DNA from: Escherichia coli
GTDB taxonomy: Bacteria; Pseudomonadota; Gammaproteobacteria; Enterobacterales; Enterobacteriaceae
Assembly (NCBI RefSeq): GCF_048403405.1
Contig: NZ_CP183129.1
Length of the DNA stretch: 64,000 bases
Strand: one strand, 5' to 3'
The notes beneath the pieces were generated by a model. The model made no database searches and was not told the DNA's origin. It was given only the letters and a program-made list of their open reading frames with translations. Position 1 is the stretch's first letter. Each line of letters opens with the position of its first letter. Below are positions 38,093 through 42,427 of the stretch, one piece after another. Made by a program: the position numbers and the translations under genes.

Positions 38093-39520
38093 ATGAGCGA
38101 TAAAAAGAAGCGCAGTATGGCGGGTTTGCCGTGGATCGCGGCGATGGCCTTCTTCATGCAGGCACTTGATGCCACTATTCTGAATACCGCCTTACCCGCA
38201 ATCGCTCATAGCCTTAATCGTTCTCCTCTCGCGATGCAATCAGCCATCATCAGTTATACGCTGACGGTGGCGATGCTTATTCCGGTAAGCGGATGGCTAG
38301 CCGATCGCTTCGGTACGCGTCGCATATTTACCCTTGCCGTGAGTCTGTTCACGTTGGGTTCTCTGGCCTGCGCACTTTCTAACTCGCTACCACAGCTGGT
38401 TGTCTTCCGGGTTATTCAGGGGATAGGCGGCGCAATGATGATGCCTGTTGCTCGGCTGGCCTTACTGCGCGCTTATCCTCGTAATGAGCTTCTTCCTGTA
38501 TTGAATTTTGTCGCCATGCCGGGTCTGGTGGGGCCAATTTTAGGCCCCGTTCTTGGCGGCGTGCTGGTCACCTGGGCAACCTGGCACTGGATATTTTTAA
38601 TCAATATCCCCATAGGTATTGCGGGCCTTCTTTACGCGCGCAAACATATGCCCAATTTCACCACCGCACGACGCAGATTCGATATCACTGGCTTTTTGCT
38701 GTTTGGCCTTAGCCTTGTTCTCTTCTCAAGCGGAATAGAGCTATTCGGGGAAAAGATTGTCGCCAGTTGGATTGCCTTGACGGTAATTGTCACCAGCATC
38801 GGGTTACTGCTTCTCTATATTCTCCATGCACGACGCACGCCAAACCCATTAATTTCATTAGATTTATTTAAAACCCGCACTTTCTCGATCGGTATCGTAG
38901 GCAATATTGCAACCCGTCTGGGGACCGGCTGTGTACCGTTCCTTATGCCATTGATGTTACAGGTAGGATTTGGTTATCAGGCGTTTATTGCCGGCTGTAT
39001 GATGGCACCGACAGCGTTAGGTTCCATTATTGCAAAATCGATGGTTACCCAAGTCTTACGTCGTCTGGGCTATCGCCATACGTTAGTGGGGATCACGGTG
39101 ATTATTGGGCTAATGATCGCTCAGTTCTCTTTGCAATCACCAGCAATGGCGATATGGATGCTGATCTTGCCGTTGTTTATATTAGGGATGGCTATGTCGA
39201 CGCAATTTACCGCAATGAATACCATCACACTTGCCGATCTGACCGATGACAACGCCAGCAGCGGTAACAGTGTTCTGGCGGTCACGCAGCAACTGTCTAT
39301 CAGTTTAGGCGTTGCTGTAAGTGCGGCCGTCCTTCGCGTTTATGAAGGGATGGAAGGTACAACGACTGTCGAACAATTCCACTATACGTTTATCACAATG
39401 GGCATTATTACTGTTGCTTCAGCAGCAATGTTCATGCTTCTGAAAACAACCGATGGTAATAATTTGATCAAAAGACAGCGTAAATCTAAGCCGAACCGCG
39501 TTCCATCAGAATCGGAGTAA
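38093..39520 (+). CDS. hsrA: MFS transporter HsrA (YieO)
   Basis: 475-aa ORF, polytopic membrane protein with MFS-type repeated hydrophobic segments; ATG at 38093. Confidence 0.92.
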
Positions 39521-40478
39521 GTTGTAATCGTTGTTGCTGAAGGGTCGGTTGGGTTATCCGATGGATGAGTACATCAATCGCCAGCTCCCCCAGTTCATCT
39601 TTCGGTTGGTGGATAGTGGTTAATGGTGGCGTCATAAAGCTTGCCAGTTCGATATCGTCATAGCCAATCACCGCGATATCCTGCGGAACCTGTAACTCTG
39701 CCTGATACAGCGCCTGGTAAACGCCAACAGCCATAGCGTCATTTCCGGTAAAGACGGCCTGAGGACGCAGCGGGTGTGATAACAGTTGGCGCATAGCGTC
39801 AAACCCGCCGTTAAATTCAAAATCACCAGTGACTTCATAGCCATCAGGAATGTTGAGGCCCGCACGTTTCATCGCCGTCCGATAACCTTCCAACCGCAGG
39901 CGCGCCGGAGTTTTATCCAGCGGACCGGTAATACAGGCGATACGGGTATGACCTTTATCGATCAGATATTGCGTTGCTAAGTCTCCGCCCAGCAACGAGT
40001 TATCCTGAATAAGATCGCTGTCGCCATCGAACGGAGCCCAGTCCATCATCACAGTAGGCACTGTCGGATAACGTTGCATGATTTCACGCGAAGGTTGATG
40101 CGTTTCGGTGCACAGTAACAGCAAGCCATCAACGCGTTTTTGCATCAGCGTTTCCAGATTGCGATTCATCCGCTGTTCATCGCCTTCGGTATTGCAAAGG
40201 ACGAGACTATAACCGCGTTCGAAGCAGCTGCGTTCAACGCCACGCACCAGTTCTGAATAGAAAGGATTGGTACTGGCAGTGATCAACATGCCAATGGTAT
40301 GTGTTTGATTGAGTTTGAGGCTACGCGCCAGGGCTGATGGCGCGTAATTGAGTTCTTTAATCGCCGCTTCAACTTTGGCGGTAATCGCTTCACTGACGAA
40401 GCGATCTTTATTGATAACGTGAGAAACTGTTGAGGTAGAAACGCCCGCCAGGCGGGCAACATCTTTCATTGTAGCCAA
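39486..40478 (-). CDS. rbsR: ribose operon repressor RbsR (LacI family)
   Basis: 330-aa [58 protein letters not shown] (LacI HTH); 3' end overlaps hsrA 3' end. Confidence 0.96.
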
Positions 40479-40481
40479 GCG

Positions 40482-41411
40482 TCACCTCTGCCTGTCTAAA
40501 AATGCGTCGATCTCTTCACGCCACGGTACGGAAGGTTGTGCGCCTTTACGTGTTACGGCAATCGCAGCGGCAGCATGGGCAAACCGAATCGCCTCTGGCA
40601 ATGGTTTTTCTTCCAGCAATGCCGTGATTAACGCGCCGTTAAAGGTATCTCCGGCAGCAATGGTATCGACAGCCTGCACCCGGAATCCAGGAACGCGCTG
40701 ACCTTCACCATTCACGCTAACCCATACACCACGACTTCCTAAAGTAATCAGTACAGTACGGATACCTTTTTCATGCAGTACCTGCGCCGCCTTCGCTGCA
40801 TCTTCATCATTTTCAACACGAATACCGGTGAGCTTTTCTGCTTCCGTTTCGTTTGGCGTAATAATGTCCACCAGCGCCAGCAGTTCGTCAGGAAGTTCGC
40901 GAGCCGGAGCCGGGTTAAGCGCAACGATAGTCTTATTTTGATGGGCGATTTTCGCCGCTGCCATCACACTTTCGAGTGGTGATTCCAGCTGCATTAATAA
41001 TGCTGACGCGTTGGCAATACGCTCACGTTGCGCTTCCACCAGCGCCGGGGAAAGGGCAGCATTAGCGCCGGCATGAATACCGATGACATTCTCACCTTCG
41101 CCATTAACAAAAATCAGCGCCACACCTGTTGATTCGCCTTTGATCACGCTGACCGGAGAAATATCGATGTTATCAGTGGCGAGCTGCTGGCGAACGCTCT
41201 CACCAATGCTGTCATCGCCAGTGCAGGCAATAAACGCGATATTCGCACCGCTACGCCCAGCAGCCACAGCCTGATTCGCGCCTTTGCCGCCAAATGCAAC
41301 CTGATAGTGGTTACCGGTTACGGTTTCGCCTGGGGTAGGAAAAGATTGAAGATTAAGAATGTGGTCAGCATTAATGCTGCCAAGAACAACGAGGCTGCCT
41401 GCGTTTTGCAT
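40482..41411 (-). CDS. rbsK: ribokinase RbsK
   Basis: 309 aa from ATG at 41409-41411 (MQNAGSLVVLGSINADHILNL...); PfkB family GG and DTxxAGD motifs; track ORF starts at an upstream GTG. Confidence 0.95.
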   Translation of the reverse strand: MQNAGSLVVLGSINADHILNLQSFPTPGETVTGNHYQVAFGGKGANQAVAAGRSGANIAFIACTGDDSIGESVRQQLATDNIDISPVSVIKGESTGVALIFVNGEGENVIGIHAGANAALSPALVEAQRERIANASALLMQLESPLESVMAAAKIAHQNKTIVALNPAPARELPDELLALVDIITPNETEAEKLTGIRVENDEDAAKAAQVLHEKGIRTVLITLGSRGVWVSVNGEGQRVPGFRVQAVDTIAAGDTFNGALITALLEEKPLPEAIRFAHAAAAIAVTRKGAQPSVPWREEIDAFLDRQR

Positions 41412-41536
41412 ATTCGGGATGTCCATAAAATGCGCCACCGTGTTAGGGTGGCGCGTGCCCTGCTTTTCTTTATATTACACGTTCATCTGTCGATGACGTA
41501 TTTATGTCACCATCAGGTCATACAACCTGATTAATA

Positions 41537-42427
41537 CTACTGCTTAACAACCAGTTTCAGATCAACCGGATACTTAGCCTGAACTTTCTCGCCTTTCAGC
41601 ACTTTATCTGCGGTTTCGACGCCTTTCGCGCCAATCTGATCGGGTAGCTGAGCGATAGTCGCTGCTAGTTTGCCATCATTCACCGCTTTTTCGCCATCCG
41701 GTGTACCGTCAAATCCGACGACCATCACATCCGATTTACCGGCAGTTTGCAGTGCGCGCAGCGCGCCCAGCGCCATTTCATCATTCTGCGCGAATACAGC
41801 CTGAACATCCGGATGAGCGGTCAACAGGTTCTGCATTACGTTCAAACCTTTGGTGCGATCAAAATCTGCTGGCTGGCTGGCAAGAACATTAAACTTGTGA
41901 GCAGCAACGGCCTGCTGGAAGCCTTCGCCACGTTCACGGGCTGCGGATGTACCAGCAATGCCTTGCAGCTCGATAACTTTGGCACCTTCGCCCGCTTTCT
42001 TCGCGATGTAATCACCGGCGATTTTGCCGCCCAGTACGTTATCAGAAGCAATGTGGCTCACCACTTCACCTTTCGTTGCCTGGCGGTCAAGAGTGATAAC
42101 CGGGATGTTCGCCTGATTAGCCATCTTCACAGCATTACCCACTGCGTCGGAGTCGGTCGGGTTAATCAGCAGAATTTTGGTGCCGCGAACGGTTAAGTCC
42201 TGCACGTTCGCCAGCTCTTTCGCCGGGTTGTTCTGGGAGTCCAGCACCACCAGGTTATAGCCAAGTTTATCCGCCTCTTTCTGCGCGCCATCTTTCAGCG
42301 ATACAAAGAACGGGTTGTTAAGCGTGGAGACCACCAGCGCGATGGTATCTTTTGCCATCGCATTCGCACTGACGGTGGCGCTTAGCGCAACAGCGGAAAC
42401 CAGGGTAGCCAGTTTTTTCATGTTCAT
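41537..42427 (-). CDS. rbsB: ribose ABC transporter periplasmic binding protein RbsB
   Basis: 296 aa from [34 protein letters not shown] (signal peptide then mature protein). Confidence 0.95.

Follow-up and report, generated by a model that had tools for sequence, protein, structure and literature searches.

In the Escherichia coli window analysed here (64,000 nucleotides of contig NZ_CP183129.1) the genes hsrA and rbsR converge and share a 35-bp dual-coding segment at their 3' ends. The overlap is correct to the base, was already present in the K-12 reference annotation and in published catalogues of overlapping transcripts, and is a real but ordinary feature. Taken as a whole, the data are best explained by a genuine and conserved overlap that derives from a 4-nt interlock of the two stop codons, with Rho-dependent ends of the hsrA transcripts, any cross-talk between the genes being probably weak, and this explanation is considered probable. 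The features on which it is based are the following:

38093-39520, plus strand: hsrA (PGAP name 'mdtD'), ORF of 475 aa, gene of a DHA2-type MFS transporter, annotated in RefSeq
39486-40478, minus strand: rbsR, ORF of 330 aa, LacI-family repressor of the ribose operon, annotated in RefSeq
39486-39520, both strands: 35-bp dual-coding segment, the shared 3' ends of hsrA and rbsR

The stop codon of hsrA is TAA (39518-39520, from the sequence and the ORF list) and that of rbsR is TAG on the minus strand (CTA on the plus strand, 39486-39488). On the minus strand the shared segment comprises the last 11 codons of rbsR and its stop; on the plus strand it comprises the last 10 full codons of hsrA and its stop, together with the two bases that complete the Ser codon before these. 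Within this segment the third codon position of rbsR is the second codon position of hsrA, so that every synonymous change of rbsR in the overlap alters the HsrA tail.

The convergent overlap of 35 nt had been claimed in a preliminary description of this DNA and is borne out by the ORF coordinates and by RefSeq. The same 35 nt are annotated in strain CFSAN061763 (100% identical), and in K-12 MG1655 rbsR is placed at 3938227-3939219 (+) and hsrA at 3939185-3940612 (-), the overlap being likewise 35 nt. The window is collinear with K-12 and nearly identical to it at the locus, fully so at 39380-39550. A 601-bp junction was found in 5414 of 5426 complete E. coli genomes, several of them 100% identical. 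The junction is a conserved gene arrangement and no chance match. Arrangements of this type are not rare: a count in a single E. coli genome gave 75 convergent overlaps of coding sequences (PMC4161906).

Spacing of the junction among Enterobacteriaceae and possible selection on the HsrA tail

The comparison set comprises 82 loci, 80 of them enterobacterial loci fetched with an HsrA query and the others two E. coli records, and both stops of each locus were determined by walking each reading frame. The two genes are convergent and essentially touching in all 82. The length of RbsR is steady (330-336 aa) and that of HsrA is variable (461-477 aa). The spacing is distributed as follows:

35 nt overlap: 36 loci; Escherichia, Salmonella, Citrobacter, Enterobacter, Leclercia and Intestinirhabdus
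53 nt overlap: 5 loci (L030, L033, L034, L036, L044); Lelliottia/Huaxiibacter group, with RbsR 6 aa longer
24 nt overlap: 1 locus; Kosakonia oryzendophytica
9 nt overlap: 6 loci; Kosakonia group (five Kosakonia and Enterobacter sp. Bisph1)
4 nt overlap (interlocked stops): 26 loci; many genera
2-3 nt gap: 8 loci; Kluyvera, Phytobacter and relatives

Junction sequences of the 4-nt state have the two stops interlocked, one example being gcT TAg of the hsrA strand opposite TAA of the rbsR strand. Loci of the 35-nt state read hsrA in a frame displaced by one base from this arrangement (…tCT Aag ccg…), so that the old stop is skipped and about 10 residues are added, and the hsrA frame ends at a TAA or TGA made by the Leu (CTT/CTC) and Thr (ACN) codons of rbsR. 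In a neighbour-joining tree of both proteins (tails excluded, unbootstrapped) the outgroup and the basal branches have the 4-nt state, and the 35/53-nt state falls into two clades that are not sisters. The 4-nt interlock is likely ancestral and the 35-nt state derived. This unbootstrapped topology would be compatible with one origin followed by a reversal, with two origins or with a poorly resolved tree.

The proposed course of events begins with an ancestral junction in which both stop codons would have been interlocked over 4 nt. In the Escherichia/Salmonella/Citrobacter and the Enterobacter/Leclercia/Lelliottia lineages a one-base shift of the hsrA frame may have occurred just before this interlock; reading would then pass the old stop and continue for about 10 more codons, antisense to the end of rbsR, up to a TAA supplied by the Leu(CTT/CTC)-Thr(ACN) codons of rbsR. 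The RbsR of the Lelliottia/Huaxiibacter group carries a C-terminal extension of 6 residues (ending in …RGSVSAGGDL), which lengthened the overlap to 53 nt; the stops of both genes have therefore moved during the evolution of this junction.

The codon register described above permits a view of selection on the added tail. Among the 31 in-register sequences of the overlap clade, third-position diversity in the last 11 codons of rbsR is 0.239, whereas the gene averages 0.436 (sd 0.075), and none of the 315 sliding windows has a lower value; the same window in the clade without the long overlap (41 sequences) gives 0.500 versus 0.470. The ratio of diversity between the clades is 0.48 versus a mean of 0.93 (sd 0.11), also the lowest of 315 windows, the signal comprising 11 sites in related and non-independent species with no phylogenetic correction. 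These values are suggestive of selection on both frames, with an HsrA tail that would be translated and under mild purifying constraint, as far as 11 sites of related species can indicate.

The synonymous sites of rbsR are not constrained by RbsR itself, and their unusual invariance in the overlap, found only in the overlap clade (rank 1 of 315), speaks against the overlap being a neutral by-product. According to this alternative, a dispensable cytoplasmic tail of HsrA was prolonged into rbsR when the hsrA frame slipped, and the sequence of this tail is conserved only by way of the RbsR C-terminus on the other strand. The last ten residues of HsrA, those coded in the overlap, do fall outside the family profile and conserved core (only residues 13-465 are matched by MFS_1 and the MdtD-subfamily model), orthologues of 461-467 aa exist without the tail, and the residues of the tail differ between genera (e.g. 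KPSPVPSEQG), all of which agree with neutrality. However, no earlier stop has arisen within the tail in any locus of the 35/53-nt class (41 loci), and the neutral explanation is judged unlikely.

Transcript ends and pairing of the two mRNAs

At the junction no terminator-like site was identified by a pattern scan, whose counts over 6 kb were at chance level, no significant hairpin was predicted on either strand (fold z-scores -1.15 and -0.67) and no inverted repeat was found by an inverted-repeat search. An intrinsic or bidirectional hairpin terminator at this place was rejected, since pattern scan, folds and inverted repeats were not above chance. The earlier statement that the two genes cannot both have a conventional intergenic terminator holds, as there is no intergenic space either. 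Given a junction with no spacer, terminator or significant hairpin, part of each mRNA must be complementary to the other. The complementary mRNA 3' ends that had been proposed are supported by the coding overlap without terminator, by the listing of the pair as an excludon and by a captured RNA duplex, both presented below.

A search of Rfam (E<=1, positions 37000-42000) found no known RNA family at the junction and only a sub-threshold match to the Yersinia sRNA Ysr197 far upstream (37019-37270, minus strand; 84 bits, below the gathering score of 167). This match overlaps two strong sigma-70-like promoters (37225-37198 and 37106-37079, minus strand) just upstream of a 16S rRNA gene, and most likely corresponds to the promoter/leader region of an rrn operon rather than to a separate sRNA.

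For the hsrA strand the published data point to Rho. A Rho region was reported at MG1655 3938923 on the minus strand, which there is the hsrA strand, antisense to rbsR, with a Rho score of 2.78 and p 7.6e-6 (Adams et al. 2021, PMC7815308 Supplementary file 2). Its peak lies 262 nt past the hsrA stop, at about position 39782 of the window, the published score being calculated in 800-nt windows so that the position of termination is only approximate (PMC7815308). The same strand presents a patch with more C than G at about 39621-39758, a modest enrichment (C/G ratio 1.2-1.5). In the Term-seq tables of that study no 3' end is assigned to hsrA in either orientation, nor to the antisense strand of rbsR (Adams et al. 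2021, PMC7815308). The corresponding feature is:

39641-39800, plus strand: putative Rho loading/termination zone of hsrA-strand transcripts, comprising a C>G patch (39641-39738) and, after it, the published Rho-region peak; antisense to rbsR

On the rbsR strand a C>G patch was identified at 39385-39288. According to the proposed mechanism, transcription of each gene would run into the other; transcripts of the hsrA strand would end in a Rho-dependent manner about 100-300 nt inside antisense rbsR, and the 3' ends of the rbsR strand would be heterogeneous and probably also Rho-dependent.

The gene rbsR is the last of rbsDACBKR. In the published Term-seq data the 3' end at 3937278, after rbsB, has a score of 84576 versus 865 for a 3' end inside rbsR (PMC7815308). 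Because of the terminator after rbsB, most rbs transcription ends before rbsK-rbsR, and polymerase traffic at the junction from the rbsR side is thus probably low. This terminator is a strong intrinsic hairpin on the minus strand at 41432-41454 (GCGCCACCCTAACACGGTGGCGC then ATTTTAT); it matches the very abundant 3' end at MG1655 3937278, which is also the annotated 3' end of the sRNA RbsZ.

Two other elements were observed in the 5' part of rbsR. The first is a perfect 8-bp palindromic hairpin (ATCGCTTCACTGACGAAGCGAT) at 40384-40405. In the rbsR sense it is followed after 4 nt by a Term-seq 3' end from the published data (MG1655 3938325) and is adjoined by a Rho region (3938387, score 3.77), which hints at premature termination or processing within rbsR near this hairpin; on the hsrA-sense strand it is followed by CTTTATTGAT and is terminator-like. 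The second is the annotated start, a TTG at 40476-40478 (minus strand), 3 nt after the TGA stop of rbsK and preceded by GAGGTGA, with an ATG three codons downstream (MATM…). The rare TTG start and the tight coupling with rbsK may keep RbsR synthesis low.

Pairing of the two transcripts is documented in a map of p19-captured duplexes formed in vivo, which are perfectly paired over 21-22 bp, have 2-nt overhangs and reach at least 1 read per million on both strands (Huang et al. 2020, PMC7373196 Table S3). The entry "hsrA rbsR" consists of AUGGAACGCGGUUCGGCUUAGA paired with UAAGCCGAACCGCGUUCCAUCA, with 158 and 232 reads (PMC7373196 Table S3). Both 22-mers have exact and unique matches in the window, at the overlap:

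39485-39508, both strands: published p19-captured 22-bp duplex of RNase III type, with the rbsR-sense 22-mer at 39485-39506 (minus), the hsrA-sense 22-mer at 39487-39508 (plus) and 2-nt 3' overhangs

The abundance of this duplex is low, 1.9-2.7 reads per million, near the reporting floor of 1 RPM (PMC7373196). It is weak evidence for anything specific to this locus, because 87% of E. coli genes give dsRNA of at least 1 RPM (PMC7373196). The complementary 3' ends would pair in vivo and be cut by RNase III at a low level, and any regulatory cross-talk between hsrA and rbsR is probably weak. Regulation of the two genes by mutual antisense effects or transcriptional interference is plausible as a hypothesis, and the idea itself is not new.

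A stronger version of this idea is that of a functional excludon, in which transcription of yieP-hsrA and of rbsR would antagonise each other through collision of RNA polymerases and cleavage of the paired 3' ends by RNase III, the absence of a spacer being kept by selection for the coupling. Induction of the YieP-activated operon would then lower RbsR and derepress ribose uptake and catabolism, or the reverse. The E. coli core excludome, whose members are present in at least 50% of 58 MG1655 transcriptomes, does include rbsR-hsrA as one of 165 convergent excludons (ExcludonFinder, PMC12288877). The operon yieP-hsrA, with hsrA as second gene, is a conserved neighbour of the ribose operon, and its product YieP reportedly acts as an activator of this same yieP-hsrA operon (PMC11340327). 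The RNase III duplex in the overlap (PMC7373196) and the abutment of the genes in 82 of 82 sampled loci also favour it. The abutment, however, is equally explained by the interlocked stops, because any indel there alters the end of a protein, and overlap lengths ranging from -3 to 53 nt argue against a specific RNA element. The closeness of the duplex to the reporting floor and the probably low polymerase traffic, given that most rbs transcripts end after rbsB, weigh in the same direction. In the literature neither an anticorrelated expression nor a phenotype of the rbsR-hsrA pair was found, and a search for the older name yieO together with rbsR returned nothing. The functional excludon is therefore held to be quite improbable. 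If both operons did antagonise, this would be one more control of the excludon type, here between a sugar regulon and an efflux operon that has been little characterised.

The most specific form of the coupling is very improbable. The spacer-free junction would here be selected as such, YieP-driven transcription of hsrA extending about 100-300 nt into rbsR and lowering RbsR by collision and RNase III cleavage, whereby an unknown efflux or stress signal would be linked to the derepression of ribose utilisation.

The two C-termini and the names of the genes

The C-terminus of RbsR is well defined by protein models. All residues of the protein (1-330 of 330) are matched by the NCBIfam equivalog NF007743, and the effector-binding Pfam domain Peripla_BP_3 reaches residue 329; the rbsR part of the overlap thus encodes the end of a folded domain. 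In 77 of the 82 loci RbsR stops at one and the same place, and in the remaining 5 its stop is 6 codons further on. The loci of the 35/53-nt class, 41 in number and from at least 8 genera, all share the position of the hsrA stop, and each of the 36 loci with the 35-bp overlap (36 of 82 enterobacterial loci) also retains an HsrA of 475-477 aa. Both stop codons are real and neither was mis-called.

The preliminary description had named a mis-annotated C-terminus as the case in which there would be no real overlap; this was checked with the protein models and the 82-locus comparison, and mis-annotation was excluded. Although some long convergent overlaps in databases are artefacts of 3'-end annotation (PMC2478687), such an origin is extremely improbable here and was rejected on the stop positions and protein models given above, the more so as stop codons, unlike starts, leave no choice to the annotator and a sequencing error is excluded because the same sequence is found in thousands of E. 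coli genomes.

Two details of nomenclature were observed. In most E. coli genomes PGAP names the transporter 'mdtD, multidrug transporter subunit MdtD' by means of the subfamily-level model NF007799 (458.6 bits; cut-off 426), and in K-12 the name is hsrA. The original mdtD is a member of the mdtABCD operon, located elsewhere on the chromosome. In E. coli strain 746 (NZ_CP023353.1) the gene in the position of rbsR is annotated only as 'substrate-binding domain-containing protein' and the junction is 100% identical, which suggests that rbsR is truncated or disrupted further upstream in this strain.

Meaning of the overlap and comparison with known systems

The overlap of hsrA and rbsR has little importance beyond housekeeping, and it was already contained in the reference annotation and in the excludon and dsRNA catalogues. 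What the present analysis adds is that it is no annotation error, that it likely derives from an older 4-nt interlock of the stop codons and that the extra tail of HsrA may be selected. The series of states at a single junction (gap, 4, 9, 24, 35 and 53 nt) is a tidy illustration and establishes no new principle.

Bidirectional collision-driven terminators (Ju et al. 2019, as described in bioRxiv 10.1101/2022.10.23.513370) resemble this junction in that a convergent pair is devoid of canonical intrinsic terminators and the polymerases must meet. As far as that description goes, the collision model needs a stem-loop in the overlap and gives uniform 3' ends, whereas hsrA/rbsR has no significant hairpin and no sharp Term-seq 3' ends are reported for it; the hsrA strand instead has the published Rho region. 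Because no hairpin is present, hsrA/rbsR is unlike hairpin-dependent terminators of this kind.

Convergent excludons (PMC12288877; p19 map in PMC7373196) are closer, as hsrA/rbsR is explicitly listed for MG1655 and presents the 22-bp duplex of RNase III type. In the classical excludon the overlap lies in untranslated regions and opposite expression was shown, whereas the overlap of hsrA/rbsR includes coding sequence and reciprocal expression of the pair is hypothetical.

The closest class is that of the convergent overlapping gene pairs of bacteria (Rogozin et al. 2002, as cited in PMC2478687; Huvet & Stumpf 2014, PMC4161906), in which two full-length and conserved genes of opposite strands overlap at their 3' ends. 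It is accepted that such overlaps originate when a stop codon moves (PMC4161906, PMC2478687), through loss or bypass of the former stop, and in hsrA this would correspond to a one-base change of frame. The overlap is likewise short (35 nt) and conserved across related genera, and purifying selection on both frames is suggested by the 11 sites described above. There is no essential difference from this class, of which E. coli has about 75 pairs, and hsrA/rbsR consists of two genuine protein-coding genes that share their 3' nucleotides in more than one species.
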